Source: Burkholderiaceae bacterium (GTDB taxonomy: Bacteria; Pseudomonadota; Gammaproteobacteria; Burkholderiales; Burkholderiaceae_E). From it: 64,000 bases of DNA. The stretch covers positions 4,739-68,738 of the forward strand of contig JANJTK010000197.1 in assembly GCA_024711155.1 (NCBI GenBank). Reading direction: 5' to 3'. Within the stretch, counting starts at the first letter, position 1. Every line of letters begins with the position of its first letter. Shown here one piece after another: positions 18,197 through 46,453 of the stretch. A program made the translations under genes and the position numbers. The notes beneath the pieces are model-generated. The model did not search any database, was not told where the DNA came from, and saw only the letters and a list, made by a program, of their open reading frames with translations.

Positions 18197-20494
18197 ATGA
18201 CGCAGTCCAACGAATACGCGGTGATCGGAAAACCGACCCCGAAGAAGGAAGCGCAGGCAAAGGTCACCGGCGGCGCGCGCTTCGCCACCGACGTCTACCT
18301 GCGCGACATGCTGTGGGCCCGGGTCCTGCGCAGCCCCCTGCCCCACGCCCGCATCGTCTCCATCGACACCACGAAGGCGAAGCGCCTGCCCGGGGTGATG
18401 GCGGTGCTCACTGCGGACGACGTGCCGGAGGCGCGCTACGGCGCGCTGGTGCTCGACATGGGGATGTTCGCGCGCGGCAAGGTCAGGTACGTCGGTGAGG
18501 CCATCGCCGCGGTCGCTGCCGTCGACGAGGAAACCGCGGCGCGGGCGGTCCGCTTGATCGAGGTCGAATACGAGGAACTCCCGGCCGTGTTCGACCCGCT
18601 CGAGGCGATGCGCCCGGACGCGCCGCTCGTTCACGAGAACCTGCCGGGCTACAAGACACTCTTCGACCGCACCCGGCGCGCGATGACCGGCAACGTCAAC
18701 TACCAGGCCGACATCGAGTCGGGGAACGTCGACGAGGGCTTCGCGCAGTCCGACTTCGTCTACGAGGACACCTACGAGGTCCAGAAGCAGCATCCGTCCT
18801 ACATGGAACCGAACTCCACGGTCGCGCACCTGGACGAGGACGGCCGGCTCATCGTCTACAACACCACTCAGCGGCCTCACATCAACCAGGCGATCCTCTC
18901 GTCGCTGCTGGGGATCCCGATCTCGCGCATCCGCGTCATCCCTTGCCACGTCGGCGGCGGATTCGGCGGGAAGAACCGGACCCTGTCCGAACCAACGGCG
19001 GCCGCGCTCGCGTTGAAGACGAAGCGCCCGGTGCGCCTCACCTTCTCGCACGAGGAGGAGTTCACGTCGGCGACCACCCGGCACTCCGCGATCATCCGGA
19101 TGAAGACGGGGGTCAGGAAGGACGGCACCCTCGTCGCCACGCAGGTCAGCCTGTACTACGAATGCGGCGCCTACGCGCCGACCCCGAACGCGGTGTGGCT
19201 CGGCGCGATCTCGTCCTCCGGACCGTACCGGATTCCGAACGCCAGGACCGAGGCGTTCTCGGTGTACACGAACAAGATGATGGGTGGCGCCTTTCGCGGA
19301 TACGGCGCGCCGCAGTCGAATTTCGCGCGCGAATCGCAGATGGACCGGATCGCCCGCGACCTGAACATCGATCCGATCGAGCTGCGGCTGAAGAACTGCC
19401 TGGTCCCGGGCGACTCGCTGCACACCGGCCAGCCGCTGCACAGCGTGCGCATCAAGGAGGCGCTGCTCAGGGCGCGGGACATGGCGCAGTGGAACACGCG
19501 CAGGCACGACGGCAACCGCGCGCTCGGCGTCGCCTGCGGCATCTTCGCCTGCGGGGGCTTCGCGACCTCGGCCGTCGTCAAGCTGCACATGGACGGCACC
19601 GCGTTCGTCGCGACCGGCGCGATGGACATGGGCCAGGGCTTGCGCACCGTGATGGCGCAGATTGCCGCCGAGGAACTCGGCATGTCCGCCGACGACGTGA
19701 CGGTGGCGATCGGCGACACCGACCTGACGCCCTTCGACGTGGGAATCTTCGGCGACCGGGGAACGCACACCACCGGGTTGGCGGTCCAGATGGCTGCCGC
19801 CGACGCCAGGCAGCAACTGGTGGCCGCGGCCGCCGATGCGATGGGCGCGAAGGCCACCAACCTGGAGTTGCGGGACCGCACAGTGATCGATCGAAGCACT
19901 CCCGGGAAGATGCTCCATTTCCGCGACGTCCTGGGAGGCGGCCAGTACAAGAAGGGCGGACCGATCATCGGGAAGGCGTCGATCAACCCGTCCGACACGC
20001 CGTTCGATCCGAAGATCGTCCAGGGCGCGGCCTCGAGGATGTTCTCGACCTACACCTTCGCCGTGCACATCGCGGAGGTCGAGGTGGAGCGCGCGACGGG
20101 GATCACGCGCGTGCCGAAGGTCTACGCGGTTCACGACTGCGGCACCGTCATCAACCCCGCGGGTCTCGAGGGGCAGATCATCGGCGGCCTGGCCACCGGT
20201 CTCGGATACGCGCTGTACGAGGAGGTCCTGATCCAGAACGGCCAGGTCCAGAACCCGAGCTTTCTCGAATGCCGTCCGCCCACTGCCGTCGACATGCCCG
20301 CGATCGAGTGGGACGTGGTCGAGGAATTCGATCGCAAGGGGCCCTTCGGCGCCAAGGGCGTCGGAAACGTCTCGGTCATCAACATGGCGCCGGCCATCGC
20401 GAACGCGGTAGAGACGATCACCGGCGTCCGCGTGAAGTCGCTCCCGATCACCGCCGCGAAGATCGTCGGCGGCGCGACGGCCGAGGAGCAATGA
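18197..20494 (+). CDS. xanthine-oxidase-family molybdopterin (large) subunit, set 1 (4-hydroxybenzoyl-CoA reductase alpha-like)
   Basis: ATG 18197 lies in ORF 18146..20494 (765 aa). Motifs GKVRYVGEAIAAVAA, HVGGGFGGK, GGAFRGYGAPQ, AMDMGQG and GPFGAKGVGN are present. Confidence 0.85.
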   Translation: MTQSNEYAVIGKPTPKKEAQAKVTGGARFATDVYLRDMLWARVLRSPLPHARIVSIDTTKAKRLPGVMAVLTADDVPEARYGALVLDMGMFARGKVRYVGEAIAAVAAVDEETAARAVRLIEVEYEELPAVFDPLEAMRPDAPLVHENLPGYKTLFDRTRRAMTGNVNYQADIESGNVDEGFAQSDFVYEDTYEVQKQHPSYMEPNSTVAHLDEDGRLIVYNTTQRPHINQAILSSLLGIPISRIRVIPCHVGGGFGGKNRTLSEPTAAALALKTKRPVRLTFSHEEEFTSATTRHSAIIRMKTGVRKDGTLVATQVSLYYECGAYAPTPNAVWLGAISSSGPYRIPNARTEAFSVYTNKMMGGAFRGYGAPQSNFARESQMDRIARDLNIDPIELRLKNCLVPGDSLHTGQPLHSVRIKEALLRARDMAQWNTRRHDGNRALGVACGIFACGGFATSAVVKLHMDGTAFVATGAMDMGQGLRTVMAQIAAEELGMSADDVTVAIGDTDLTPFDVGIFGDRGTHTTGLAVQMAAADARQQLVAAAADAMGAKATNLELRDRTVIDRSTPGKMLHFRDVLGGGQYKKGGPIIGKASINPSDTPFDPKIVQGAASRMFSTYTFAVHIAEVEVERATGITRVPKVYAVHDCGTVINPAGLEGQIIGGLATGLGYALYEEVLIQNGQVQNPSFLECRPPTAVDMPAIEWDVVEEFDRKGPFGAKGVGNVSVINMAPAIANAVETITGVRVKSLPITAAKIVGGATAEEQ

Positions 20495-20495
20495 C

Positions 20496-21518
20496 ATGCA
20501 GGCCCTTCCGGAATTCGAATATTTCGAGCCCGCATCGCTGGAGCAGGCGGCGCAGTTGCTGCGCGACGTCGGCGAGCAGTGCATGGTGCTCGGCGGCGGG
20601 ACCGACCTCGTCCCGTCGATGCGGCAAGGCCTGTTCCGGCCGAAGTACCTGCTGTCGCTGCAGGCGATCGACGCGCTGCGCGACATCCGCTGGGACGATC
20701 GAACCGGACTGGACATCGGCGCACTCGCGACGCTGCGCAGCGTCGAGTCGCACCCCGACGTGCTGCGGCGCTTCCCGCTCGCCGCGCGTGGCGCTTTCGA
20801 GGTCGCGTCGCCGTCGCTCAAGCAAATGGCGACCGTCGGCGGCAACCTCTGCCTGGACACGCGCTGCTACTACTACAACCAGTCCGAGCAGTGGCGGGAG
20901 TGCAGCACCGCGTGCCTGAAGATGGGCGGCGAATTCTGCAAGGCGTCGCCGGGCGGGCGGGCGCGCAAGTGCTTCGCGGCGTTCTCGGGCGACCTGGCGA
21001 CGACGCTCGTCGCGCTCGACGCGCAAGTGACGCTGCTGTCGGGGCGAGGCGAGCGGACGCTCGCGCTGCGCGACTTCTACACCGGCGACGGCGCGAAGCC
21101 CAACGTCAGGCAACCCGACGAGATCCTCACCCGCGTGCTGATTCCGGCTGCCAGCAGCGGCCGCATCGGCTCGTACCGGAAGTACCGCATCCGCGGTTCG
21201 ATCGACTACCCGATTGCCAGTGTCGCGTTGACGGCGCGGCCGACGGCGAACCCGGACGTGTTCGAGGATCCGCGCCTCGTCGTCAGCGCCGTGACGACGC
21301 GGCCTGTGGTCGTCAAGGGCGTCGAGGAGCTCGTGGCCGGGAAGCCGCTGGACGAGGCGCTGATCGAGGCAGCCGCGCAGCTCGCCCGCCGCGCCGCCAT
21401 TCCGGTGGCGAACACCGCGGGGGTGCGCACTCACCGCAAGCACGTCGTCCACGAGTTCGCGCGGGAAGCGTTCGCCGACCTCGTCCAGCAGGCGCGAAGA
21501 GCGCCGCTGCCATCCTGA
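20496..21518 (+). CDS. FAD-binding (medium) subunit, set 1, with Cys-rich insertion (putative extra [4Fe-4S] site)
   Basis: ORF 20496..21518 starts 1 nt after the large-subunit stop. It has a CoxM/XdhB-like fold (VLGGGTDLV, VGGNL). A roughly 37-aa insert reads CLDTRCYYYNQSEQWRECSTACLKMGGEFCKASPGGRARKC. Confidence 0.85.
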   Translation: MQALPEFEYFEPASLEQAAQLLRDVGEQCMVLGGGTDLVPSMRQGLFRPKYLLSLQAIDALRDIRWDDRTGLDIGALATLRSVESHPDVLRRFPLAARGAFEVASPSLKQMATVGGNLCLDTRCYYYNQSEQWRECSTACLKMGGEFCKASPGGRARKCFAAFSGDLATTLVALDAQVTLLSGRGERTLALRDFYTGDGAKPNVRQPDEILTRVLIPAASSGRIGSYRKYRIRGSIDYPIASVALTARPTANPDVFEDPRLVVSAVTTRPVVVKGVEELVAGKPLDEALIEAAAQLARRAAIPVANTAGVRTHRKHVVHEFAREAFADLVQQARRAPLPS

Positions 21519-21532
21519 ACGGGGTCACGAAC

Positions 21533-22069
21533 ATGAAACAGGCGCTGACGCTGCAGATCAACGGCCGATCGCACGAGTTGCTCGTCGAGCCCCGCCGGAC
21601 GCTGCTCCAGGTGCTGCGCGAGGACCTCGCGCTGACGGGAACCAAGGAGGTCTGCCTGCTGGGATCCTGCGGCGCGTGCACCGTGCTCGTCGACGGCAAG
21701 CCGGCGCTCTCCTGCCTCGTGCTGGCAGTGTCGTGCCGCAACCGGCAGGTCACCACGATCGAGGGACTCGCGCGCGACGGCGAACTGCACCCGCTGCAGC
21801 AGGCGTTCATCGACAAGGGCGCAGTGCAGTGCGGCTACTGCACGCCCGGCATGATCATGGCCGGGAAGGCGCTGCTCGACGAGCACCCGGCACCGACCGC
21901 CGCGCAGGCGCGCCAGGCGATCGCGGGGAACCTGTGCCGCTGCACAGGATACGCGCAGATCGTCGACGCAATCGTGAGTGCAGGCGGCGCGTCGGGACCT
22001 TGCTGCGGCGGCGTGCCGGCGCAGCCCGCCCTTGCGGCCCCGTACCTGATGCCGGAGACCGGCGAGTAG
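21533..22069 (+). CDS. [2Fe-2S]-binding (small) subunit, set 1
   Basis: ATG 21533 lies in ORF 20579..22069. Cluster motifs [20 protein letters not shown] and CRCTGY are present. Confidence 0.88.
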
Positions 22070-22082: not shown

Positions 22083-23036
22083 ATGGACACCGCGTTCTCC
22101 GACGCGCCCGACATCAGGATCTCGGTACGCCAGGTCTTCGGATTCGACTCGGACCTTCAGGTTCCGGCGTTCAGCGAAGCGAGCGAGCACGTGCCCGATC
22201 TCGACGAAGCGTACTGCTTCGACCTCGAGACCACGATGGCGATCCTGGTCGCGTTCGCCCACAACCGTCGCCTGCTGATCCAGGGTCGCCACGGCAGCGG
22301 CAAGTCGTCGCACATCGAGCAGGTCGCAGCGCGCCTGAACTGGCCGACGGTGCGCGTCAACCTGGACGGCCAGATCACGCGCACCGACCTGATCGGCCGC
22401 GACGCCATCGTGTTGCGCGAAGGCAAGCAGGTCACGGAATTCCGTGAAGGCATCCTGCCGTGGGCCTTCCAGCATCCGGTCGCGCTCGTCTTCGACGAGT
22501 ACGACGCGGGCCGCCCGGACGTCATGTTCGCGATCCAGCGGGTGCTCGAACTCGAGGGCCGCCTGACCTTGCTCGACGGCAACCGCGTCCTGCGCCCCCA
22601 CCCCGGGTTCAGGCTCTTCTCGACGGCGAACACGGTCGGGCTCGGCGACGCCACGGGCCTGTACCACGGCACGCAGCTGCTGAACCACGCGCAACTCGAC
22701 CGCTGGAACCTGGTCGCACGACTCGACTACCTCAGGCCCGACGACGAGATCGGGATCGTCCTGGCGAAGACACGCGGATACGACGATGACGAAGGCCGCA
22801 AGGCCGTCGCGTCGATGGTCGCGATGGCGAACCTGACGCGTTCCGGTTTTGCCGCCGGGGACGTCTCCGCCGTGATGTCGCCGCGGACAGTCATCACCTG
22901 GGCCGAGAATGCGCGCCTCTTCGGCGACGTTCGACTGGCGTTCCGCCTGACCTACCTGAACCGCTGCGACGACTTCGAGCGACCGATCGTTGCCGAGTAC
23001 TACCAGCGCTGCTTCGACGACGACCTCGGCGCGTAG
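22083..23036 (+). CDS. cobS: CobS-like AAA+ (MoxR-class) ATPase
   Basis: ORF 22083..23036 starts 13 nt after the small-subunit stop. Walker A is [13 protein letters not shown] and Walker B is LVFDEYD. There is strong by-eye resemblance to aerobic cobaltochelatase CobS ([57 protein letters not shown]). Confidence 0.8.
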
Positions 23037-23061
23037 CGCAGCGACGCGCGAAGATCATCGA

Positions 23062-24948
23062 ATGTCCGAGTCCGATCCGGCGCACGATCCGCTCGCGCGA
23101 CTCTGCGCCGTGACCGCGGCGACGATGCGCGCGCTGGCGGGCCGCGCGGACATTCCGCTCCCGTTCGCCCCGGACCCCGTCGGCCCGGGGATCCCGGACG
23201 CCCGCACGGCAGAGCCGGACGCAGCTCTCGCCGGCGATGCCCTCGCCCGCTTTCGCGGCGACGCCGACGCAGTTGCGTTGCGCCTGCGCCTGCACGACCC
23301 CGCCCTTCACGCGCGCCTCGCGCCCGCCGGCGGCGACGCCCGCGCCGCCTTCGACGCCCTGGAGCAGTTGCGCGTCGAAGCGCTCGGCGCGATCCACATG
23401 CGTGGCGTGGCCGCGAACCTTCGCGCCGCCGCGCAGGCGCGATGGCATACGCGCTGGCTCGACGCCGCGCACGGTCGCGATACAGCGCACCGTGGCGACA
23501 CCGCACCCGTCGCCGACCTCCTGGCGCTGCTCGCACGCGAGCGGCTCACTGGCGACCGCTGCTGGCCGCGTGCGGCCGATGGCGTCATCGACCGCTGGCG
23601 CACCCGGCTCGATGCCAGCGTCGAGCGTCGACTCGATAGACTCGTCGACGCCGTCGCCGACCAGGACCGCTTCGGCGAGCAGGTGCGTCTCCTTCTTTCC
23701 GAGGCCGAGCTCGACGACGCATGCCCGCCGAAGATCGAGTCTTCCGGGGGAGCACCCGAACCCGACTGCGACCGTCCCGACGACACGCCTCGCGACGAGC
23801 GCGCGATCGACGCCGCCAGCGTGGAGCCCGACGCCGCGCCCACGCGTGCACTCGAGTCGAGTGCCCCGCTGGCCGGCCGCGACGAAGAGCACGGCACCGA
23901 GGCCGCCCCGCAGGGGCCGGCGCCCGCTGCCGTGCAATCGGCGCCGGCGGCGGCCTGCGCGCCGCCCTCTCGCTATCGGCCATTTACCACTGCGCACGAC
24001 GAGGTCGTCACGCCGGGCGACCTGCGCGATCGCGGCGAGTTGCTGCGGCTTCGCGCGCTTCTCGACGCCCTGATCGCGGCGAGCGGTCGCGCGACCTCCC
24101 GCGACGCCGCCCGCCTGCAGCGCCAGCTGCTCGCCAGCACCCCCCGGGGCTGGGACTTCGAGCTCGAGGCAGGCCTGCTCGACACCGCGCGCCTGGTGCG
24201 CACGATCGTTGCCCCCGACAACGCACGCATCTACAAGAGCGAGCGCGAGGAGCGCGTCCCCGAGACGACCGTCACGCTGCTGGTCGACAACTCGGGATCG
24301 ATGCGCGGGCGACCGATCGCGCTCGCAGCGATGACCGCCGACATCGTCGCGCGCACGCTCGAGCGCTGCGGCATCGGCACCGAGATCCTGGGCTTCACGA
24401 CCCGCGCATGGAAGGGTGGCCGTTCACGCAAGGACTGGGTCGCCCAGGGCAGGCCGCCGGCCCCGGGCCGTCTCACGGACCTGCGGCACGTCGTCTACAA
24501 GTCGGCCGGCACGCCGTGGCGGCGCGCCCGCGTCGGCCTTGCGCTGATGCTCGACGAGGGCCTGCTGAAGGAGAACGTCGACGGCGAGGCACTCCTCTGG
24601 GCGCACGCGCGGCTGCTCGCGCGCCCCGAGCGACGGCGGATCCTGATGGTGGTCTCCGACGGCGCCCCGCTGGACGACTCTACGACTTGTACGAACGCAC
24701 CCGACTACCTCGAACGGCACCTGAGAGAGGTCATCGCGTGGATCGAGCGCCTGTCCCTCGTCGAGTTGACGGCCATCGGCATCTGCCACGACGTCTCGCG
24801 CCATTACCGTCGGGCCCTGACCCTCGACGATGCGGAGCAGCTGGGCAGCGCGGTGATCCGGGAACTGGGTGCGCTCTTCTCGCCATCCCGGAGCTCGGGC
24901 AACCGGGGGTCGGAGCTGTCAGGCCGCCCTCGTCATGGACCCAGGTAG
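23062..24948 (+). CDS. cobT: CobT-like von Willebrand factor A (VWA) protein
   Basis: ATG 23062 lies in ORF 22990..24948 (628 aa). The C-terminal VWA domain has the MIDAS motif [14 protein letters not shown]. CobT-like blocks follow ([60 protein letters not shown]). Confidence 0.8.
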
Positions 24949-27539: not shown

Positions 27540-27556
27540 CTGCGAAGGAATCGGGC

Positions 27557-38156: not shown

Positions 38157-38239
38157 CGGCAACCCTCTTCTTCCCCTGCTGCCCGGTGCGGCAGCTCGAA
38201 CTGCGACGGGGCCGGATCGCCGGCCCCGGGTTGCCGCTC

Positions 38240-40186
38240 CTACCAGCCGGCGGGCCGCGAGATCGTGATGTGCGGCTTGACCTCTTCCTCCGTCGGCACC
38301 CATCCCGGAAGGATGTGCTTGCCCAGCGGGTGCAGCTGGTAGGGCGCCGTGCCCTCCGCGAACCCGGTCTTGCGCATGTTGGCGCGCAAGCTCGCGGTGG
38401 CTTTCTCGTCGATCCGGAAGTCGCAGGCCTCGGCGTCGACCTCGTCGATCACGACCCCGTAGAAGTCGCGCGCTGCGGCGACGCTGAGCCACTCGTCCTT
38501 GACGTCTTCGAGCACCAGCTCGGGTTCGCGGTCCAGCGGATTGCCGAAGCCGCCGCCGCCGCTGGACGAATAATAGATCTTGTCGCCCTTCTTCAACTCG
38601 ACGCCGGTGGCGTACATTCCGGCGTTGAACTCGCGGTCGGTGCCCTTGTTGACGATCAGCATGCTGCCGCCGCCGTTGAGGCCGCCGGAGAGGCCGAAGG
38701 GGCCGAACTTCTCACGGTCGCCGTGAATCGTCATGGTGACGTCGGTCTGCACTTCCAGCTCGCGCACCAGCGCAAAGCCGCCGCGCCGCATGCCGTGGCC
38801 GCACGAATCGACGCGCGCCTCGTAGGCCGTGTACACGACCGGGAACCAGCGCTCCTCGAGCTCCTGCGGAATCGTCCTCGCGTTGCAGAAGCGCATGAAG
38901 ATCAGCGACTTGCCGTCCTTGAACGTGCGCGCATTCTCGCCGCCCACGGCGTAGGTGTACTGGACGAACTCCTTCTTCGTGCGCGGGTTGAAGCCGCCCA
39001 TGCAGAGGTTGGTCAGGCTGACCGCCGCCGGATAGACGCGCCACGGCTGCACCTTGCCCAACGGCCCTCCGAGGCACGCAATGGTCACGGCCTCGATCTT
39101 GTCGAAAGCGCCCGAGCAGTATCCGGTCGTGGGCGCAGGGAAGTCGACGTCGACGCAGGTGCCCCGCTTCGAGATGATCTCGAGGTTGCGGACGATCCCG
39201 TGGTTGAGCGGAAACAGCGACGGGAAGCAGATCATGAAGCCGAGATAGGTGCCGCCGATCAGCGTGGCCCGCGTGCCGCCCCAGGAGGCCCGCGGCTGCT
39301 TGTCCGAGTCGGTCCAGTCGAAGGTGAGCTTGGTGCCCTTCTTCGTCATCACGCAGTGCACGCGGATCGGCGGCTTGCCGGGCGACATCACGTCCTGGTC
39401 GCCGAAGTCCTCGAATTGCCAGGTGCCGTCGGGCAGCGCGGCCAGCTCGGCCAGCATCATGCGCTCGGTGTAGTTGAACTGTTCCTCGTAGGCCTGGAAC
39501 AGCGTCTCGACCCCGTAGCGCTCGCACAGCTCGACCACCCGCCGGTCGATCAGGCTCGAGGCCTCGAACTGCGCCTGCAGGTCGGCCCGGCGCTCGATCG
39601 AGCCGCGGATGTTGATGGCGATCAGGCTGAACAGCTCCTCGTCGAGCTTGTTCTCCTTGAACAACCGGATCGGCGGGATGCGGATGCCCTCCGCATAGCA
39701 GCTGGTCGCCTCGGGGTTGAAAGTGCCGGGCAGCGGCCCTCCCATGTCGGCCCAGTGGATCACCGTGCACGCGAACGCGACGATCTGGCCGCGGAAGAAG
39801 ATCGGCCGGATCATCCGCGTGTCGTTGACGTGCGAACCGGTGCGATACGGGTCGCTGAACAGGAAGGTGTCCCCTGGCTTCATGCTCTCGCGGGAGATGT
39901 CCTTCAGCAGTTCCTGCACCGACGGCTCGAACGACGCATAGTGCGCCGCCGCATCGGTATGTCCGTGCGCGACCAGCCGCGCATCGGGCGTGAGGATCGC
40001 GTTGGAGCGGTCACGCCCCATCCCGATCACCGGATGGTAGGCGATGCGCTCGATGGTCGTCGACGCCTCGTAGCAGGCGGCAACGAACGCGTTGCGCATC
40101 ACCTCGAAGGTGATCAGGTCCATGCCGAGGCCCGCATCCTCGATCTTCTCTTTGACGGCTGTGGCTGTGCTCGATTTCTGCGACAT
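38240..40186 (-). CDS. hydantoinase B/oxoprolinase family subunit (HyuB-like)
   Basis: From ORF 38240..40573, trimmed to ATG 40186 (GAAGGA 7 nt upstream, 13 nt after the hyuA stop; 648 aa). The product reads DLITFEVMRNAFVAACYEASTTIERIAYHPVI, with SSSGGGGFGNPLDREPELVLEDV. Confidence 0.85.
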   Translation of the reverse strand: MSQKSSTATAVKEKIEDAGLGMDLITFEVMRNAFVAACYEASTTIERIAYHPVIGMGRDRSNAILTPDARLVAHGHTDAAAHYASFEPSVQELLKDISRESMKPGDTFLFSDPYRTGSHVNDTRMIRPIFFRGQIVAFACTVIHWADMGGPLPGTFNPEATSCYAEGIRIPPIRLFKENKLDEELFSLIAINIRGSIERRADLQAQFEASSLIDRRVVELCERYGVETLFQAYEEQFNYTERMMLAELAALPDGTWQFEDFGDQDVMSPGKPPIRVHCVMTKKGTKLTFDWTDSDKQPRASWGGTRATLIGGTYLGFMICFPSLFPLNHGIVRNLEIISKRGTCVDVDFPAPTTGYCSGAFDKIEAVTIACLGGPLGKVQPWRVYPAAVSLTNLCMGGFNPRTKKEFVQYTYAVGGENARTFKDGKSLIFMRFCNARTIPQELEERWFPVVYTAYEARVDSCGHGMRRGGFALVRELEVQTDVTMTIHGDREKFGPFGLSGGLNGGGSMLIVNKGTDREFNAGMYATGVELKKGDKIYYSSSGGGGFGNPLDREPELVLEDVKDEWLSVAAARDFYGVVIDEVDAEACDFRIDEKATASLRANMRKTGFAEGTAPYQLHPLGKHILPGWVPTEEEVKPHITISRPAGW

Positions 40187-40199
40187 GATTTCGTCCTTC

Positions 40200-42257
40200 T
40201 CAGCGCTCGACCTGGATGATGAGATTGCCATAGTTGTCGACCCGGCAGTGGGTCCGCGGCGGCATGACCACCGTCGTGTCGGCCTGCTCCACGATCGCGG
40301 GGCCGTCGAAGGTGGCTCCAGCCGGCAGCAACTCGCGCTGATAGATGTCCGTCTGCACGAATCCCGCGTCCTGGAACCAGACCATCCGGTTGCACTTGTG
40401 CGCATCGCGCAAGGTGCTGGTGCGTTCGATCGGCTGCAGGTCGGGCTTCTCGATCCGGCCCCTGACCACGACCCGCAGGTTGACGATCTCCACCGGCGCG
40501 TAGCCGGGCGGCAGCGTATAGCCGTAGGCCTCGCGCATCGCCCCCATGAAGGTGGTGGTGATTCCGTCGACATTGTCGATGCGGCCCGGCTCGACGGCCA
40601 CCGTGAAGAACCTGCTCTGGCTGAAGTACTTCACGTCGGCCAGCCGCTCCACGACGATGTCCGTTTCGGCGATGCCCTCGCTCTTCAGGATGCCGACCGC
40701 GCGCTTGACCAGCGCGTCGAACTCGTCGTTGAGCCAGCCGAAGTCGATCTCTTCCTCGACCTTGTGGATCGGCGTGGTGAATTCCTGCTTCATGTCGACG
40801 CGGATCGCGCCGAACGCCGAGGCGTAGCCGGGCAGCGGCGGCACCACGACGGTCGGGGAGCCGATCTCGCGCGCCAGGTCGCACGCATAGAGCGAGCCTC
40901 CGCCGCCATACGGAACGATCGCGAAGTCGCGCGGATCCCACCCACGCGCGACCGTCTGGATGCGCATCGCCATCATCAGGTTCGCCATGGCCACGCGGTA
41001 CATGTTGGCGGCCGATTCCTCGGCGGTCCAGCCGTAGTGCGATCCGATCTTCTCCGAGAGCGCCTTGCGCGACAGATTGCCGTCGACCTTCAGCTCGCCG
41101 CCGAGGTAGTACTCGGGATCGATCCGGCCGAGCACGATCTGGCAGTCAGTGTTGGTGGGCTCCTCGCCCCCCTGCCCGTAGCACGCCGGCCCCGGGACCG
41201 CGCCCATGCTCTGCGGCCCGACGTTCAGGATCTTGCCCTTGTCGACCCAGCCGATCGAACCTCCGCCCGAACCGATGTACACGGTGTCGACCGAGGGCAG
41301 GCAGCACGGCACGTTCCAGAGGATCTTCCACTCGTGCGTGATCGCCGGCGAACCGCGATAGATCATCGAGACGTTGTTGGTCGTGCCGCCCGTCTCGAAC
41401 GCGATCACGTTCTCGAAGCCGGCCAGCGACCCGATGTAGCCTGCCATCCCCACCGCGCCCGACACCGGCGAGGAATGGAAGGTCTTGGCGGGCATCTTCG
41501 CCGCCTCGTCCATGCCGATCACGCCGCCGCCCGAGGTGGTCACGAGGATCGGGCCGTTGAAGTTCCAGTCCTTCTTGAGCCGGCTCGACAGGCCGCTCAG
41601 GTAGTTCTTGAGGATCGGCGCGATGTACGCGTTCAGGACGGTCGTGCAGGTGCGCTCGAACTCGAGCATCTGCGGCAGCACCTCGTGCGACAGCGTGACG
41701 TCGACGCCCGGAAGCTCCCGCTGCAGGATCTCGCGCGTGCGCACTTCATGCGCGGGATTCATGAACGAGTCCATGTAGACGACCGCGACGGACTCGACAC
41801 CGCGCTTGCGGCACTTGCGCGCGGCCGTAACCACGTCTTCCTCGCTCAGCGGCGTGAGGATCTCCCCGTACGGGCTGACGCGCTCGCGCACGGTCAGCAC
41901 GTCGCGGCGCGGGATGATCAGCTCGGGCGGATCCCAGTCCAGCTCAAACGCGGAGATGCGTTCCGCGCGCCCGCCGCCGAGCACGTCCCGGAAGCCGACC
42001 GTCGTGATGAGCGCCGTCTTCACCCCCTTGCGCTCGAGGATCGCGTTGGTCGACACCGTGGCGCCGTGCCGGAACGATGCAACGTCTTCGCCCCGCAGGC
42101 CGGCCCGCTTGAGCCCGTTGATCACGCCGTCGAAGAAGGTCGGGGGAGTCGAGGGCACCTTGCCGATGCGCTGCTCGCCCGTCTCTAGATTCACGCCGAT
42201 CACGTCGGTGAAGGTTCCACCGATGTCCGTGCCGACGACCCATTTCCCCTTGCCCAT
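40200..42257 (-). CDS. hydantoinase A/oxoprolinase family subunit (HyuA-like, ATP-binding actin-like fold)
   Basis: From ORF 40200..42299, trimmed to ATG 42257 (GGAGG 4-5 nt upstream; 685 aa). Motifs VGTDIGGTFTDVI, VSTNAILERKG and FETGGTT are present. Confidence 0.85.
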   Translation of the reverse strand: MGKGKWVVGTDIGGTFTDVIGVNLETGEQRIGKVPSTPPTFFDGVINGLKRAGLRGEDVASFRHGATVSTNAILERKGVKTALITTVGFRDVLGGGRAERISAFELDWDPPELIIPRRDVLTVRERVSPYGEILTPLSEEDVVTAARKCRKRGVESVAVVYMDSFMNPAHEVRTREILQRELPGVDVTLSHEVLPQMLEFERTCTTVLNAYIAPILKNYLSGLSSRLKKDWNFNGPILVTTSGGGVIGMDEAAKMPAKTFHSSPVSGAVGMAGYIGSLAGFENVIAFETGGTTNNVSMIYRGSPAITHEWKILWNVPCCLPSVDTVYIGSGGGSIGWVDKGKILNVGPQSMGAVPGPACYGQGGEEPTNTDCQIVLGRIDPEYYLGGELKVDGNLSRKALSEKIGSHYGWTAEESAANMYRVAMANLMMAMRIQTVARGWDPRDFAIVPYGGGGSLYACDLAREIGSPTVVVPPLPGYASAFGAIRVDMKQEFTTPIHKVEEEIDFGWLNDEFDALVKRAVGILKSEGIAETDIVVERLADVKYFSQSRFFTVAVEPGRIDNVDGITTTFMGAMREAYGYTLPPGYAPVEIVNLRVVVRGRIEKPDLQPIERTSTLRDAHKCNRMVWFQDAGFVQTDIYQRELLPAGATFDGPAIVEQADTTVVMPPRTHCRVDNYGNLIIQVER

Positions 42258-42414
42258 TTCACCTCCGTTTCGTCGCGCGCCAACGCGGTCGCGCGACATC
42301 GTGTTCGGGATTCGCGAAGACGATGCCGACCCCCGTCTGCATCGCTCTTTAAGGAACGGTATTCATTTTTCGGCTGTCAGTCAAGAGCCGCGCCCGGCAT
42401 CGCTCGTCCTCCGC

Positions 42415-43206
42415 TCAGACGGTCTCGAGGCTGCGTCCGGGCATGTAGTGGAGGACCGCACGTTCCGCCGCCACAACCGCGGCGTAAGCAAGGATTCCGA
42501 TCACCGTGAGCACCACGATCGTGACGAACACCATCGCCGTGTTCGCCTGCCCCTCGCCGAACACCAGCAGGTACCCGAGCCCCGAGTTGCCGCCGACCAT
42601 CTCGCCGACCAGGACACCGATGACGGCCAGCGTCGAGGCGATTCGCAGGCCCGAGAACAGCGGCGGCATCGACGCCGGGAACTCGAGTTTCCAGAACAAT
42701 TGCAGGCGCGTCGCGCTGAACGAACGAACGAGGTTGATCATGTCGCGATCGAGCGTGTGCATTGCCCCGAGGACGTTCACCATCACCGGGAAGAACACGA
42801 TCAGCACCGCGACCAGGATCTTCGGGTAGATCGTGTAGCCGAACCACATGACGAACAGCGGCGCGAACGCGACCTTCGGGGCGATCTGCATCGCAAGGAT
42901 GTAGGGCGACAGCACCATCTCGGCTGTGGGCGAGACTCCCAGGCCATAGCCGACGATCATGCCGAGAAGGCTGCCGAGGATGAACCCGATCACCACCTCC
43001 GCCAGCGTCACTCCCGTGTGGAAGAGCAGCTTCTCGACCCGGACCATGCGCCCGGCCTCGACGATCACGTCGGAGAGCGGCGGGATGATGAATTCGGGGA
43101 TGCCCGTCAACCCGGGCAGCCATTGCCATGCGGCGGCGAAGGCCGCCAGCAGGGCAAGGCTGCCCGACAGGGCAGACCGCCCCGAGCCTCGAGGCGCGGC
43201 GGCCAT
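42415..43206 (-). CDS. ABC transporter permease (NitT/TauT nitrate/sulfonate/taurine-type)
   Basis: ORF 42415..43206. It is a BPD-type inner-membrane component (LVRSFSATRLQLFWKLEFPASMP). Confidence 0.8.
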   Translation of the reverse strand: MAAAPRGSGRSALSGSLALLAAFAAAWQWLPGLTGIPEFIIPPLSDVIVEAGRMVRVEKLLFHTGVTLAEVVIGFILGSLLGMIVGYGLGVSPTAEMVLSPYILAMQIAPKVAFAPLFVMWFGYTIYPKILVAVLIVFFPVMVNVLGAMHTLDRDMINLVRSFSATRLQLFWKLEFPASMPPLFSGLRIASTLAVIGVLVGEMVGGNSGLGYLLVFGEGQANTAMVFVTIVVLTVIGILAYAAVVAAERAVLHYMPGRSLETV

Positions 43207-43209
43207 GGC

Positions 43210-44199
43210 CTAGCGGACGAACTGGTTGGTGTAGAGGTCGGCGATCGGCGTCTTCGTGCGCACGATCCCCTGCGACACGTAGAAGTCCTGCAGCTTGACG
43301 AGCCGCGCCTCGTCCATTTCCCCGAGCACTGCCTGTCCCGGATAGACGCGCTCGGCGTAATAGCCGAGGATCTTCGCCATCGCAGCCTCCTTGCCGGCGT
43401 GCTGGGGCACCGCAGCAACATACGCCTGCGCCGCCGCCTTCGGATCCTTCATCACTTCCGCCACCGCCCTGAGGGTCGCGCGCACGAAGCCGCGCACCGC
43501 CTGCGGCTTCTTCGCGATCGTGGCGTCGGATGCGATGATCGCCTGCGCCATGCCGGGGAAGTACTGATCGACCGAAATCCAGTTGAGCCGGATTCCCGCA
43601 TCCTCGACCGCGGCGCCCCACTCCGGAACGGCCGCTGCCGCGACGGCATCCCCGCTGATCATCAGCTTCGAGACTCCGGCGGGCCCGACGGCCTGGGCAT
43701 TGACGTCGTTCTTGCCCAGGTTGAAGGCCGCCAGGGCGCCGAGAAGCGCGTAATACGTCGTGTCCTGGTAGGCCATGACCGCAATGGTCTTGCCCTTCAG
43801 GTCAGCCGGGCTGCGGATTCCGGAATCCGCCCTCGAGATCAGTTGCGTCAGCGCGCGCCCCCCGAGCACCGCCACCGTCTTCACCGGCACGCCGTTGGGT
43901 CGCACGATCACCGAGGTGTCGCCGATGCCGCCGCCCATGTCGGCGTTGCCGGCGCCCACCTGCTTGGCGACGTCGGCGCCCCCCTTGCCGACGACGAACT
44001 CGACCTCGACGCCCTCCGCCGCGTAGTACCCCTTCGCCTGCGCGAGCATGAACGGCGCAAAGGCGGGCAGCACGGCCGGCGCCGGGAACAGGTAGGTGAT
44101 CTTCTCCGCCGCGCTGGCAGCTCCTGCCGGCAGGAGCGCAGCCGCGAGACCCAGGGCCAGCGTGAGCTGGCGCAATGCAGCAAACGTCTTCCTCAACAT
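43210..44199 (-). CDS. ABC transporter substrate-binding protein (NMT1/THI5-like, NitT/TauT family)
   Basis: From ORF 43210..44634, trimmed to ATG 44199 (GAGGAG 8 nt upstream; 329 aa). The signal peptide ends PAGAASAAE. Confidence 0.75.
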   Translation of the reverse strand: MLRKTFAALRQLTLALGLAAALLPAGAASAAEKITYLFPAPAVLPAFAPFMLAQAKGYYAAEGVEVEFVVGKGGADVAKQVGAGNADMGGGIGDTSVIVRPNGVPVKTVAVLGGRALTQLISRADSGIRSPADLKGKTIAVMAYQDTTYYALLGALAAFNLGKNDVNAQAVGPAGVSKLMISGDAVAAAAVPEWGAAVEDAGIRLNWISVDQYFPGMAQAIIASDATIAKKPQAVRGFVRATLRAVAEVMKDPKAAAQAYVAAVPQHAGKEAAMAKILGYYAERVYPGQAVLGEMDEARLVKLQDFYVSQGIVRTKTPIADLYTNQFVR

Positions 44200-44225
44200 G
44201 ACCTGTCTCCTCGTGTCAGTGGCGA

Positions 44226-45020
44226 TCAGTGATCGCCTTCGTTGATGTGCAACAGTGCCATCAGTTCGCGAACGTACTCGGTCATCCGGGTGCTCTGGCG
44301 GCGGGCGAACGGATTCGCTCGATCCGGAATGTCGACCACGATTTCCCGCACGATGGTGCCGGGCCGCTGGCTCATCACCAGGACGCGATCCGACAGCGCC
44401 ACCGCCTCGGCGAGATCGTGAGTGATGAACAGGGCGGTCCTGCGCTCCTGCGCAAACGCGCGGCTGAAATCGCTCTGGAGAACCATCTTGGTCTGCGCAT
44501 CGACTGCCGAGAACGGCTCGTCGAGCAGAATCACGTCCGGATCGACGGCAAGCGTGCGCGCGAGCGCCGCGCGCTGGCGCATGCCACCGGAAAGCTGGTG
44601 CGGGTAGTGATGACCGAACTTGCCCAGGCGGCATCGTTCGAGGTGGTCGGCGGCCCGGGCCCGGCGAGTCTCGCGGGGTTCTCCGCGGATCTCGAGGCCG
44701 AGTTCGATGTTCCCGAGGATCGTCCGCCAGGGCATCAGCAGGTCCTTCTGGAGCATGAAGGCCACCTGGCGATTCGGTCCTTCCACGCGATGCCCGTCGA
44801 CGAAGACCTCGCCGGCGTTGGGCCGGTCGAGACCGGCGGCCATCGTCAGCAGCGTGCTCTTGCCGCAGCCGCTGGGACCGATCAGCGAAACGACTTCGCC
44901 GTCACCGATGGCAAGACTGACATCGGTGACGGCGACCACCGGCTCGGCCACGCCGCCCCCCCGGCCCTTCACGTTGAAGCACCGGGTCACCTTCCGGAAT
45001 TCCAGGCGCGGCGCGGCCAT
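44226..45020 (-). CDS. ABC transporter ATP-binding protein (NitT/TauT family)
   Basis: From ORF 44226..45074, trimmed to ATG 45020 (GGGAGG upstream, 20 nt after the UbiD stop). Motifs GPSGCGKST, LSGGMRQR and ILLDEPFSAVD are present. Confidence 0.85.
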   Translation of the reverse strand: MAAPRLEFRKVTRCFNVKGRGGGVAEPVVAVTDVSLAIGDGEVVSLIGPSGCGKSTLLTMAAGLDRPNAGEVFVDGHRVEGPNRQVAFMLQKDLLMPWRTILGNIELGLEIRGEPRETRRARAADHLERCRLGKFGHHYPHQLSGGMRQRAALARTLAVDPDVILLDEPFSAVDAQTKMVLQSDFSRAFAQERRTALFITHDLAEAVALSDRVLVMSQRPGTIVREIVVDIPDRANPFARRQSTRMTEYVRELMALLHINEGDH

Positions 45021-45040
45021 GGCCTCCCCCGGGGACCGAG

Positions 45041-46453
45041 TCAGCGCTTGCGCCAGGTGAGCTTGCTGCCCCATTTCGCAAGCGTCCGATCGACGATCTG
45101 GGGATCATCGACGGTCCTCGGCGCCTTCTCGCCCCAGAACTCGTACTCCTCGGTGCACATCGTGGCGTCGATGCCGAGTCCGGTCTGCCAGCCCTTCTCG
45201 CGCAGGCTGACCGCCGGGTCGAGCCACTGCCCGGCGCGTCGCGGGAGGATGTTGACGTCGCGGTCCGCCCGCACCCGCGTCGACAATGCCCAGTGCACGC
45301 TGTCGTAGTCCCAGATGTCGATGTCCTTGTCGACGACGATGACGTGCTTGTAGCGCGCATAGGTCGCGCCCCAGACGGCATCCATGACCTGCTGCGCATG
45401 CCCCGGAAAGAGCTTGTCGATCTTGACGATGGCCTCGTAGGTGACGTCGCAGCGCAGGTCGAGCACCCCGGGAACCAGGGCCTTGATGGTCTGGTACGCA
45501 ACCGCCTGCGAGGATTTCCCGACCGCGAATGCGCTCTCCGACGGATACCACTGTTCGCGCGCCCCGAGATAGATCGGGTTCTTGCGCATCGTCACGCGGG
45601 TCACTTCGAACACCGGATTCGAGCGGGCCTCGCCGTAATAGCCGGTGTACTCGCCGAATCCGCCTTCGATCTCGCGATGCGCGGGCCGAACGAAACCCTC
45701 GAAGACGAACTCGCAGGTCGCCGGAACGAAGATATCGACGCTCTGGCACTTGACCATGTCGAGCGGTTCGCCGCGCAACCCCCCGGCGATCTCGAATTCA
45801 TCGACGTTGGGAGGCGTCCGCGTGCTCGCGACGATGAACACGGTCGGGTCGTAACCGGTGACGACGGCCATCGGCATCGGTTCGCCGTGGCGCTCGTACT
45901 GGATGTAGTGCTGGCGACCGTGGGTGTATTCCGGGGCGCCCCATCCGAGCTTGTTCTTGCCGAGGGTGCCCATCCGGTAGATGCCCGCGTTGTGCACGCC
46001 CGTTTCCCGGTCCTTGGTGATCGACACGCTGAGGGTTCCGGGGAAGCGCCCACCATCGTACTGATGCCAGATCGTGTTGCAGATCCGGTCCAGGTCGATC
46101 TCGTCACCCTCGAGCACGACCTCCTGGCAGGGCGCCGACGACACGATCCGGGGCTTGACCGGAACCGCCGTGCGGCGACACCACTCGTCGTTGAAGGTGG
46201 ACCAATGCTCCATGCCGAGGGCCGCGAGGAAGCGCCGGTCGGTGCCGAGGAGATTGGTGACCATCGGGTAGTCGCACCCCTTGATCCGGTCGAACTGGAT
46301 CGCCGGCCCGTGCTCCTGCAAGCCGATCCGGGTGATGCCGTTGATCTCCCAGTCGGGATCCACCTCGTCGCCAATCCGGTGCAAGTCGCCCTTCTTGTCG
46401 AGGTACTCGAGAAACTCCCGCATGTCGTACCAGTTCGCCTTCGCCTTGCTCAT
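45041..46453 (-). CDS. UbiD-family prFMN-dependent (de)carboxylase
   Basis: ORF 45041..46453 (470 aa). The product reads MREFLEYLDKKGDLHRIGDEVDPDWEI. Motifs HNAGIYRM, EFEIAGGLRGEPLDMVKC and EGGFGEYTGYYG (catalytic Glu region) are present. Confidence 0.88.
   Translation of the reverse strand: MSKAKANWYDMREFLEYLDKKGDLHRIGDEVDPDWEINGITRIGLQEHGPAIQFDRIKGCDYPMVTNLLGTDRRFLAALGMEHWSTFNDEWCRRTAVPVKPRIVSSAPCQEVVLEGDEIDLDRICNTIWHQYDGGRFPGTLSVSITKDRETGVHNAGIYRMGTLGKNKLGWGAPEYTHGRQHYIQYERHGEPMPMAVVTGYDPTVFIVASTRTPPNVDEFEIAGGLRGEPLDMVKCQSVDIFVPATCEFVFEGFVRPAHREIEGGFGEYTGYYGEARSNPVFEVTRVTMRKNPIYLGAREQWYPSESAFAVGKSSQAVAYQTIKALVPGVLDLRCDVTYEAIVKIDKLFPGHAQQVMDAVWGATYARYKHVIVVDKDIDIWDYDSVHWALSTRVRADRDVNILPRRAGQWLDPAVSLREKGWQTGLGIDATMCTEEYEFWGEKAPRTVDDPQIVDRTLAKWGSKLTWRKR

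Follow-up and report, generated by a model that had tools for sequence, protein, structure and literature searches.

A conserved, mosaic set of genes for a UbiD-family enzyme, two molybdenum enzymes, and a HyuAB-type enzyme that may serve oxygen-independent breakdown of N-heteroaromatic acids in an uncultured Burkholderiaceae bacterium

In the Hmf/Trudgill route for furoate, a ligase forms the coenzyme A (CoA) ester, a molybdenum (Mo) enzyme hydroxylates it, and the lactone tautomer is hydrolyzed, with UbiD/UbiX feeding in the dicarboxylate (PMC3223595). In the anaerobic indoleacetate (iaa) route, a ligase and a Mo hydroxylase work together with a HyuAB-type enzyme predicted to be a 2-oxoindoleacetyl-CoA gamma-lactamase (PMC5214803), and the lumazine route combines a Mo dehydrogenase with the opening of an amide bond and with a UbiD decarboxylase that is inactive on 2,5-furandicarboxylate (PMC12391406). 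ATP-dependent lactam hydrolases of the HyuAB family are expected to phosphorylate an amide carbonyl, after which hydrolysis follows (PMC5214803, PMC8453981). Here we describe a 64,000-nucleotide (nt) stretch of DNA (the window) from an uncultured Burkholderiaceae bacterium (GCA_024711155.1, contig JANJTK010000197.1, positions 4,739 to 68,738) that encodes a UbiD-family enzyme that uses prenylated flavin mononucleotide (prFMN), UbiX, HyuAB, an AMP-forming acyl-CoA ligase, and two Mo enzymes of the xanthine dehydrogenase (XDH) family, here called Mo1 and Mo2. We hold with moderate confidence that these modules constitute one conserved, mosaic catabolic network whose substrate would be a small heteroaromatic carboxylic acid, the ring most likely being an N-heterocycle of pyridine or pyrrole type, and in which all committed steps would be independent of O2. 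No described instance of this gene combination was found in the open-access literature searched.

The locus resembles each of the described systems in part. With the Hmf system of Cupriavidus basilensis (hmfABCDE plus hmfFG) it shares a UbiD/UbiX pair that would feed in a mono-acid and an AMP-forming ligase that, in the relatives L054, L056, L063, and L066, is coupled to a three-subunit XDH-family Mo enzyme, and the hydroxylation, tautomerization to a cyclic ester or amide, and hydrolytic opening that we propose here would also be alike. Unlike the Hmf system, it adds the ATP-dependent HyuAB, a CoxG-containing Mo2, and a [4Fe-4S] insertion in Mo1, occurs also in strict anaerobes, and has operons without the HmfE hydrolase or the HmfH oxidase; no gene of the enoyl-CoA hydratase family, to which the 2-oxoglutaroyl-CoA hydrolase HmfE, of the crotonase family, would belong, lies in the three operons, the nearest (g8, 6543-7430) being unlinked. 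With the iaa pathway of Aromatoleum/Azoarcus the locus shares a CoA ligase, a Mo hydroxylase, and a HyuAB-type lactamase predicted to act on an oxo-heterocycle, and among the related loci L007 and L054 only have a PaaK-type ligase and a B12-type acyl-CoA mutase in addition; unlike the iaa cluster, the window lacks mutase, CoA-transferase, and beta-oxidation genes. UbiD/UbiX is not known to be part of the iaa pathway. The extra genes of L007 (13095-17167) and L054 (14462-22289), which are absent from this window and are features of the anaerobic indoleacetate cluster, encode a second TetR, a PaaK-type ligase (“paaK2”), a methylmalonyl-CoA-mutase-family protein, and a small glyoxalase-fold (epimerase-like) protein.

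Lumazine cluster I of Cupriavidus sp. LA-1 likewise combines an XDH-family dehydrogenase with a prFMN-dependent UbiD/UbiX and amide opening of an N-heterocycle and is spread across phyla (PMC12391406), but its ring is opened by an Amidohydro_2 isomerase that acts on 6,7-dihydroxylumazine, and it has neither a ligase nor HyuAB; a GTP-binding helper and an XC decarboxylase are further marks of it. As an assignment for the window, cluster I was rejected: UbiD and the Mo large subunit are only 29% and 38% identical, respectively, to those of the cluster-I-like locus L071 of Cupriavidus sp. EM10, and no Amidohydro_2 gene occurs in the window. L071 itself (p352-1, NZ_CP076061.1, 1124177-1140414), an unannotated part of a chromid, has genes in the order UbiD-like, FAD, iron-sulfur (FeS), Mo large subunit, and UbiX and matches the gene content of lumazine cluster I. 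The phenol/4-hydroxybenzoate pathway of Thauera/Aromatoleum (pps, ppcABCD, hcl, hcrABC, and korAB) also has a UbiD-family enzyme with UbiX, a CoA ligase, and, in HcrB, a FAD subunit with the same four Cys residues as that of Mo1, and HcrA and HcrB are the best PDB matches of the Mo1 subunits. Unlike that pathway, the window has a hydrolase-type HyuAB and a second hydroxylase, and its ligase is not of the benzoate-CoA type. No phenylphosphate synthase domain (phosphoenolpyruvate [PEP]-utilizing or pyruvate phosphate dikinase [PPDK]-like) was found in the 57 called genes, and the ATP enzyme that is present is HyuAB.

On the minus strand of the window, ubiD, an NMT1/SsuA-type ATP-binding cassette (ABC) importer, hyuA, hyuB, the ligase gene, and ubiX form one co-directional array (46453-35997) with intergenic gaps of 13 to 157 nt (Table 1). 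No minus-strand terminator was found inside the array, and the sole promoter-like match within 35500-47700 is a sigma70-like sequence in the divergent tetR-ubiD spacer. A preliminary description of this DNA had placed the modules in separate operons; HyuAB, UbiD, UbiX, and the ligase instead share one array with a single promoter-like match and no internal terminator. The operon may be controlled by the divergently encoded TetR repressor (g42). The ABC ATPase gene (g40) begins 20 nt downstream of ubiD, and ATPases of this type accompany UbiD in L004, L005, L010, L020, L033, and L042. Among PDB structures, the ligase (g35) matches malonyl-CoA and feruloyl-CoA synthetases best, and its top 60 matches include no benzoate-CoA ligase.

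The same genes recur together across genomes. A scan of species-representative genomes for HyuB returned 43 loci, all in metagenome-assembled genomes (MAGs), with HyuB orthologues in Alpha-, Beta-, and Deltaproteobacteria (Desulfomonilaceae and Desulfobacteraceae), Acidobacteria, and Dehalococcoidia, and the gene set is also found in Bacillota. For comparison, window proteins and recurrent nonwindow families were mapped by tblastn onto 42 HyuB-anchored loci with flanks of ±10 kb, and about 17 Mo1-anchored loci were also compared (loci are designated by L numbers); fractions of 25 refer to the full-flank HyuB loci, with at least 7 kb on both sides. hyuA was present in 25/25, a CoA ligase gene in 24/25, and tetR in 20/25, and an orthologue of the g35 ligase gene lay beside hyuB in 21/25. 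An XDH-family large subunit was encoded in 16/25 and a Mo2 orthologue (≥50% identity) in 11/25, a LIV-type importer in 12/25, a CUT2-type ABC importer in 11/25, and UbiD in 8/25 (14/42 overall); a thiolase-like gene stood beside the ligase gene in 8/25. The commonest Mo partner of HyuAB is thus the insertion-free Mo2 (g25-28), which the preliminary description did not name. Mo2-hyuA-hyuB or hyuA-hyuB-ubiD-(coxG)-Mo2 was contiguous and co-directional in many loci. The ligase is a FadD/MatB-like orthologue of g35 in most Proteobacteria and of PaaK type in Deltaproteobacteria, Acidobacteria, Dehalococcoidia, and Bacillota, a nonorthologous displacement which suggests that CoA activation is intrinsic to HyuAB function. 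HyuAB-ligase occurred without UbiD in 17/25 loci, and UbiD-Mo2 occurred without HyuAB in L048-50 and L053; this separability of the HyuAB-ligase, UbiD, and Mo2 modules is what successive catabolic steps with alternative entry points would predict, and UbiD with its own importer appears to behave as an optional feeder module.

An early impression from the ±10-kb flanks of HyuB that Mo1 was unlinked to the unit proved to be a flank-length artifact and was overturned by a search anchored on g18. That search recovered a discrete orthologue family of Mo1 large subunits at 51 to 88% identity, followed by a drop to 45%. In the Burkholderiales MAG STL-PRO94 (L036, L054), two UbiD genes (UbiD' and UbiD), Mo2, NMT1 fragments, the ligase, the large, medium, and small subunits of Mo1, and UbiX form one co-directional array, with hyuAB just upstream on the same contig. 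The ligase gene is directly upstream of Mo1 in L054, L056, L063, and L066, with a gap of only 4 nt in L054 and L056; the 4-nt ligase-Mo1 arrangement recurs in the Burkholderiales MAG SJ14, UbiX lies downstream of Mo1, and a metagenome scan added more copies of ligase-Mo1-UbiX, whose sources are probably closely related to STL-PRO94. Both STL-PRO94 (JAXMFT01) and SJ14 (JADLAV01) have the full set of modules. The genes are not so arranged in this window. Elsewhere, Mo1 adjoins UbiD (L055), a UbiD-like gene and an AMP-ligase gene (L057), a CUT2 importer, tetR, and hyuAB (L058), or a second Mo large subunit, a TRAP transporter, a Fer4 protein, and hyuA (L059). HyuAB, a CoA ligase, UbiD/UbiX, and the Mo enzyme with the Cys insertion therefore do travel together across genomes, as their co-location in the window had led the preliminary description to suppose. 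The same description had counted KorAB and an IorAB-like enzyme among the modules as sources of reduced ferredoxin; both are present in the window, but neither is linked in any Mo1-anchored locus or in the HyuB-anchored loci (0/42). In two anaerobe-type contigs, L055 (13965-16280) and L059 (13963-16290), a second XDH-family large subunit (771 to 775 amino acids [aa]) directly follows the three Mo1 genes without FAD or FeS genes of its own, an arrangement which suggests that two catalytic subunits may share one electron-transfer module.

HyuAB is the most constant part of the set, and its sequence places it with hydrolases. Among PDB structures, HyuA ranks N-methylhydantoinase first (8e-126), followed by the gamma subunit of acetophenone carboxylase (Apc; 2e-92), caprolactamase (2e-90), and acetone carboxylase (Acx; 4e-57), and the HyuB ranking is N-methylhydantoinase (3e-63), caprolactamase beta (CapB; 4e-58), Apc (3e-37), and Acx (4e-15). 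The HyuB alignment with N-methylhydantoinase runs through residue 603 of 648. hyuA and hyuB lie 13 nt apart, and the 157 and 83 nt that separate the pair from its neighbors are too short for a gamma-subunit gene. Hyd-type hydrolases have been parted from ketone carboxylases by a hydA-hydB arrangement without gamma and by sequence closeness (PMC5214803). By these criteria, the sequence ranking and the lack of a gamma-subunit gene place HyuAB as a predicted Hyd-type ATP-dependent lactam or cyclic-amide hydrolase, not a ketone carboxylase. The relationship to acetone and acetophenone carboxylases claimed in the preliminary description is thus borne out at the family level, while the branch is that of the lactam hydrolases. 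A ketone-carboxylase reading of the hyuAB-ligase-thiolase combination was rejected as well, given the missing gamma subunit, the weak similarity to Acx, and the absence of an extra domain in HyuB. The use of HyuAB as a substitute for phenylphosphate synthase, also proposed there, is unlikely, since its sequence groups it with N-methylhydantoinase and caprolactamase, a gamma subunit is lacking, and in many loci it is paired with a ligase in the absence of UbiD.

With N-methylhydantoinase, CapAB, and the 5-oxoprolinase OplAB, HyuAB shares the two-subunit organization without gamma and the best sequence matches; unlike them, it forms its own tightly conserved clade that is paired with a CoA ligase, and its scores against the CapAB equivalog models are 463 and 253 bits, versus a cutoff of 1000. 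HyuB is 75 to 90% identical across MAGs of Proteobacteria, Acidobacteria, and Desulfobacterota type and 68 to 72% identical in Dehalococcoidia and Bacillota; HyuA is 75 to 89% identical in most related loci and 69 to 71% identical in L034, L015, and L052. This cross-phylum identity far exceeds that of the neighboring genes and would imply either very strong constraint on the pair or recent interphylum transfer of only these two genes.

The closest solved structure to UbiD (g41) is PtHmfF (6h6x/6h6v; 1.7e-68, 37.9% identity), and UbiX is also present; 6H6V is the 2,5-furandicarboxylate decarboxylase PtHmfF (PMC8988006). Of the NCBIfam models, only the generic UbiD model fits: g41 scores 161.9 bits against phenyl_P_alpha (cutoff, 564.6) and 187.5 bits against phenyl_P_beta (cutoff, 468.95). 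UbiD is a single gene in the window, not a paired alpha/beta set with small subunits. The preliminary description had assigned it the part of a phenylphosphate-type carboxylase, which is unlikely given these low scores, the single gene, and a decarboxylase, HmfF, as the closest structure. Orthologues of g41 form a discrete family (54 to 91% identity). Three of them (P0177, P0181, and P0183 in L048-L050, 10001-11917; 71 to 72% identical to g41) carry an N-terminal CoxG/SRPBCC fusion, and their genes stand divergent from a Mo2-type FAD-FeS-Mo operon. Such fusions provide a predicted “Rosetta stone” link of the decarboxylase to an accessory subunit of a Mo enzyme.

Mo1 (g18-20) is the Mo enzyme for which a reductase-type Cys-rich insertion had been described, and the alignment confirms it. 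The FAD subunit g19 carries an insertion of about 40 residues (nt 20850-20972) in which C124, C140, C148, and C159 align with the [4Fe-4S] ligand Cys residues of the beta subunit of 4-hydroxybenzoyl-CoA reductase (1rm6_B). These four residues are invariant in all Mo1-family FAD subunits examined and recur in the hyuAB-linked FAD subunit of a Desulfomonilaceae MAG. All three subunits miss the Hcr equivalog models (g18, 578 versus 994.55; g19, 252 versus 404.55; g20, 180.6 versus 257.8). HcrA is the best PDB match of both Mo large subunits, with nearly equal values (4e-108 for g18 and 3e-109 for g28), and since both score alike, similarity to HcrA does not single out Mo1. Because an insertion with Cys residues is likewise found at this position in the medium subunit of an aldehyde oxidase (5y6q_B), the insertion is not diagnostic of a reductase; from its sequence, it appears to mark an extra cluster and not the direction of catalysis. 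Genetic coupling and adjacency to a CoA ligase suggest that Mo1 probably acts on a CoA thioester. The XdhC-type chaperone g23 may serve either Mo enzyme.

The genes cobS and cobT (g21-g22, 22083-24948) follow the Mo1 [2Fe-2S] gene with gaps of 13 and 25 nt, an adjacency that is kept in the closest relative, L060 (13956 onward). CobS scores 519 bits, just under its equivalog cutoff of 558.55. These genes may encode co-transcribed, ordinary B12 chelatase subunits or AAA+/von Willebrand factor A (VWA) maturation factors analogous to CoxD/CoxE. A B12-type mutase is carried by related islands elsewhere.

The Mo2 enzyme (g25-28) and the LIV-type importer attached to it (31394-35913), which lie in the same operon with overlapping stop and start codons, are contents of the span 18197-46453 that had been overlooked in the preliminary description. 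The FAD subunit g26 lacks the Cys insertion in the alignment, and CoxG adjoins Mo2 or UbiD in many loci. The position of the divergent IclR-family gene (g24) suggests a regulatory role. In the cultured Variovorax sp. PBL-E5, an orthologue of the Mo2 large subunit (79% identity; L047) has the same four-part architecture, in the order TetR, NicX, CoxG, FAD, FeS, Mo, alpha/beta-hydrolase, LIV importer, and alpha/beta-hydrolase, with an amidase about 2 kb beyond; this is a context of the pyridine-ring, maleamate type. Variovorax sp. YR216 also carries the Mo2 orthologue with NicX. Since this context has no ligase within 10 kb, Mo2 probably acts on a free heterocycle. HpdA, the 3-hydroxypyridine dehydrogenase of Ensifer adhaerens HP1, resembles Mo2 in its separate SRPBCC/CoxG, FAD, [2Fe-2S], and Mo subunits, and the Variovorax orthologue of Mo2 is likewise linked to a NicX-family, 2,5-dihydroxypyridine-type dioxygenase. 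Unlike in the window, where no such proteins occur and the helper would be HyuAB, the helpers of HpdA are PEP-utilizing/PPDK proteins (10.1101/2020.01.08.898148). Orthology of Mo2 to HpdA was rejected, as no plasmid homologue, E. adhaerens included, exceeds 38% identity.

From gene content, operon structure, family placement, and cross-phylum synteny, we infer the substrate class, the order of steps, and the direction of Mo1 as follows. A carboxylated precursor would be imported by the NMT1-type or LIV-type ABC system and decarboxylated by UbiD with prFMN from UbiX. The XDH-family enzymes Mo1 and Mo2 would then add water-derived oxygen beside the ring heteroatom, and the hydroxylated ring would tautomerize to a lactam or cyclic imide, which HyuAB would open by ATP-dependent phosphorylation of the amide carbonyl and subsequent hydrolysis. 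The ligase would supply or take over the acyl-CoA for downstream metabolism, for which a thiolase-like protein, a B12-type mutase, and an epimerase-like protein are additionally encoded in some genomes. The network would thus be a nitrogen counterpart of the furoate route: because hydroxylation beside nitrogen gives a stable lactam, an ATP-driven lactamase would replace simple lactone hydrolysis. An N-heterocycle is favored by the links to NicX, a homologue of which also adjoins the ligase in L039, by an NCS1 nucleobase-type permease in an Acidobacteria locus, by the NMT1/THI5 binding protein, and by the need of HyuAB for an amide bond. The independence of the steps from O2 fits the occurrence of the genes in MAGs of sulfate-reducer type and other anaerobes. 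The pyridone-like or otherwise enolizable ring compound that had been suggested as the substrate of an undescribed pathway is compatible with this reading; the phenol-like mechanism suggested with it is not favored.

Several observations weigh against the proposed network. Gene adjacency is the sole basis of the step order, and no enzyme of the set passes a curated equivalog cutoff. Mo1 could be a reductase, given its HcrB-type cluster and the Fer4 proteins nearby in anaerobes, and the Mo1-anchored sample is small and includes near-duplicate organisms. Neither hyuAB, nor the ligase, nor UbiD was found within 10 kb of the Variovorax Mo2 cluster, and neither an enoyl-CoA hydratase nor a thioesterase, with which a Trudgill-type route would be completed, is encoded in the operons. 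Finally, hyuAB-ligase stands without a Mo enzyme or UbiD within 10 kb in 7/25 full-flank loci, so HyuAB-ligase can work as a stand-alone lactam module.

This last point bears on the alternative that two independent pathways often share an island, namely, a lactam or cyclic-imide module (importer, HyuAB, ligase, thiolase-like protein, and TetR) and an N-heteroaromatic module (UbiD, CoxG-Mo2, and Mo1) that yields a product to be cleaved outside it, e.g., by NicX. The same 7/25 loci, in which hyuAB-ligase is accompanied by only a CUT2-type ABC importer and TetR, the Variovorax and UbiD-CoxG fusion loci, which have Mo2 with or without UbiD and no hyuAB within 10 kb, and the free shuffling of the modules all speak for it. 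We nevertheless consider it unlikely, as at least 12 loci of different classes have Mo2-hyuA-hyuB and hyuB-ubiD-Mo2 in contiguous, co-directional order, UbiD and HyuAB share one operon in this window, the ligase is common to the hyuB and Mo1 positions, and Acidobacteria and Bacillota keep the combination with a ligase of another type. A furan-type, Hmf-like pathway (2,5-furandicarboxylate to furoate to furoyl-CoA, followed by hydroxylation, with HyuAB unrelated) would account for HmfF as the closest structure to UbiD, for one JGI name of a UbiD orthologue that mentions 2,5-furandicarboxylate decarboxylase, and for a ligase-Mo enzyme adjacency that matches hmfD-hmfABC (PMC3223595). It is very improbable, since identity to PtHmfF is only 37.9%, HmfE-type hydrolase and HmfH oxidase are absent from the operons, the associations with NicX, NCS1, and NMT1 point to N-heterocycles, and the most conserved and constant member, HyuAB, is an amide hydrolase not needed for a lactone. 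A chance co-location of unrelated catabolic genes in a gene-dense region is the least credible explanation and extremely improbable. The window is indeed rich in diverse catabolic and transport genes, and Mo1 is separated from the hyu operon by 14 kb and is on the opposite strand, but the same orthologues recur together across phyla in different orders, and fusion proteins exist; the synteny census largely refutes chance, and identities of 45 to 90% with varied gene orders also speak against one recently transferred element.

The mechanism put forward in the preliminary description, by analogy with anaerobic phenol metabolism, is that HyuAB phosphorylates an enolizable or lactim hydroxyl (e.g., of a pyridone), UbiD/UbiX carboxylates the product, the ligase makes the CoA ester, and Mo1 dehydroxylates it reductively with ferredoxin from KorAB or IorAB. 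The module set fits this scheme step for step, and there is more in its favor: the four family-invariant HcrB cluster Cys residues of the Mo1 FAD subunit, HcrA and HcrB as top PDB and NCBIfam matches of Mo1, a ligase-Mo1 adjacency that resembles ligase plus reductase, and Mo1 orthologues in strict anaerobes with Fer4 proteins close by. HyuAB-family enzymes do phosphorylate carbonyl/enol groups (PMC5214803), and the Mo enzyme HpdA requires PEP-utilizing helpers for 3-hydroxypyridine conversion (10.1101/2020.01.08.898148). We rate it as improbable. HyuAB ranks with the lactam hydrolases and has no gamma subunit, and the single UbiD gene, whose nearest structure is a decarboxylase, scores 162 and 188 bits against phenylphosphate carboxylase cutoffs of 565 and 469. 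HyuAB-ligase without UbiD (17/25) and UbiD-Mo2 without HyuAB (L048-50 and L053) show the two to be separable among loci, which disfavors an obligate activation-carboxylation couple. Kor/Ior are linked in 0/42 loci, an insertion-free second hydroxylase is the commoner Mo partner, the Cys-bearing insertion also occurs in aldehyde oxidase 5y6q_B, and no dearomatizing reductase for the product is in sight. An aza-analogue of the phenol pathway, in which HyuAB would phosphorylate the lactim oxygen of a pyridone or hydroxypyridine, UbiD would carboxylate it, the ligase would make a heteroaryl-CoA, and Mo1 would dehydroxylate it with ferredoxin, is quite improbable in our estimate; a reductive or activation variant retains this small probability in view of the Hcr-type cluster, of the Fer4 genes that anaerobes have, and of the PEP-utilizing helpers that HpdA needs. 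If true, the aza-analogue would give UbiD carboxylases an ATP-dependent activation chemistry of a new kind and would extend Hcr-type reductases to a new class of substrates.

Table 1. Positions of the enzyme, transport, and regulatory features of the window
Gene	Feature	Position (nt)	Strand	Basis and remarks
	2-Oxoacid:acceptor oxidoreductase alpha/beta pair (KorAB-like)	2-2349		OAFO_sf, 486 bits (cutoff, 483)
g18	Mo1 molybdopterin large subunit	18197-20494	+	Pfam; NCBIfam 4hydrxCoA_A, 578 bits (cutoff, 994.55)
g19	Mo1 FAD subunit, 340 aa	20496-21518	+	PDB 1rm6_B, 6.6e-50
g20	Mo1 [2Fe-2S] subunit	21533-22069	+	Pfam Fer2_2/Fer2
g23	XdhC-type Mo-cofactor insertion chaperone	24971-25765	-	Pfam XdhC_CoxI/XdhC_C; lies between Mo1 and Mo2
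g24	IclR-family regulator	25879-26703	-	Pfam HTH_IclR/IclR_C; divergent from coxG
g25	CoxG/SRPBCC subunit	26967-27539	+	Pfam COXG
g26	Mo2 FAD subunit, 283 aa	27557-28408	+	Pfam FAD_binding_5/CO_deh_flav_C; likely start, ATG at 27557
g27	Mo2 [2Fe-2S] subunit	28405-28914	+	Pfam Fer2_2/Fer2
g28	Mo2 molybdopterin large subunit	28911-31286	+	Pfam Ald_Xan_dh_C/MoCoBD_1/2
g29-33	LIV-type ABC importer	31394-35913	+	Pfam Peripla_BP_6, BPD_transp_2 (two), ABC_tran (two)
g34	UbiX flavin prenyltransferase	35997-36572	-	Pfam Flavoprotein; NCBIfam UbiX, 272.8 bits (cutoff, 188); last operon gene
g35	AMP-forming acyl-CoA ligase, FadD/MatB-like	36609-38156	-	Pfam AMP-binding
g36	HyuB, catalytic partner subunit	38240-40186	-	Pfam Hydantoinase_B
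g37	HyuA, ATP-binding subunit	40200-42257	-	Pfam Hydant_A_N/Hydantoinase_A/Hydant_A_C
g38	ABC permease	42415-43206	-	Pfam BPD_transp_1; likely start, ATG at 43206
g39	NMT1/THI5-SsuA-type periplasmic binding protein	43210-44175	-	Pfam NMT1; NCBIfam SsuA_fam below cutoff; synteny
g40	ABC transporter ATPase	44226-45020	-	Pfam ABC_tran
g41	UbiD-family prFMN (de)carboxylase	45041-46453	-	Pfam UbiD_N/UbiD/UbiD_C; first operon gene
	Sigma70-like promoter, TTGACA-18-TAAATT	46695-46724	-	Consensus match only; tetR-ubiD divergent spacer
g42	TetR-family regulator	46914-47585	+	Pfam TetR_N; divergent from ubiD
	Two-subunit IOR-family enzyme (IorAB-like)	48687-52452

Genes were called with a codon-usage model, and all 57 genes in the window were annotated with Pfam and NCBIfam. 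The G+C content of the whole window is about 70%; over 26967-46453 it is slightly lower (0.665 to 0.678, versus about 0.70 in the flanks), and this dip is compatible with acquisition as an island. Close relatives of HyuB, Mo1, Mo2, and UbiD were absent among the plasmids searched, all matches being at or below 39% identity. One plasmid locus, L072 of Alicycliphilus denitrificans (pDP3, NZ_CP051297.1, 21028-37223), has two XDH-family enzymes (39% identity to Mo1) flanking a LIV-type importer beside tcuAB and a LysR gene. Tricarballylate is the end product of the isonicotinate/citrazinate route, and with its tricarballylate genes tcuAB, L072 may be an isonicotinate-type plasmid cluster. The window was detected in metagenomes from sediment, aquaculture, soil, and wetland; the locus occurred in metagenomic DNA runs only, and RNA-labelled runs contained at most 11% of its words.

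Upstream of Mo1, g12-g14 (10948-14258) encode a conserved trio of a short-chain dehydrogenase/reductase (SDR), a thiamine pyrophosphate (TPP)-binding protein, and an aspartate-dehydrogenase-like protein, which pass NCBIfam models PRK07062, PRK07064, and PRK13303.1-2. An aldehyde dehydrogenase, a two-domain extradiol-type dioxygenase, and a FAD monooxygenase follow, and together these genes resemble an aerobic catabolic operon of their own; at the equivalog level of NCBIfam, g17 does not qualify as NicC-like. A link of this g11-g17 operon (SDR, TPP enzyme, aspartate dehydrogenase, aldehyde dehydrogenase, extradiol-type dioxygenase, and FAD monooxygenase) to Mo1 was rejected, as it is not conserved in the closest relative, L060. 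Elsewhere in the window are a rubrerythrin gene directly after the 2-oxoacid oxidoreductase genes (g3, 2346-2867), a gene for a CYTH-CHAD protein (g7, 4701-6350), which combines a triphosphate tunnel metalloenzyme with a polyphosphate-associated domain, and a gene for a 484-aa protein (g49, 55454-56908) with an N-terminal haloacid dehalogenase (HAD)-like hydrolase domain and a UbiA-family prenyltransferase domain.

Related loci come from soil, sediment, groundwater, and aquaculture metagenomes. The enzymes are also of interest for biocatalysis, e.g., to carboxylate heteroaromatics reversibly or for regioselective hydroxylation. If the proposed network is real, it would join prFMN decarboxylases, water-dependent Mo hydroxylases, and ATP-driven lactamases in one scheme and would provide a concrete case in which ATP overcomes the stability of a lactam, where the furan analogue needs lactone hydrolysis only. 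It would also define a function for a tightly conserved HyuAB clade (about 75 to 90% identity across phyla) and for two orthologue families of XDH-type enzymes, one of them with the rare Hcr-type [4Fe-4S] cluster. Overall, these populations, spread over at least five phyla, would then possess a widespread route, which we have not found described, for the mineralization of N-heteroaromatic acids without oxygenases.

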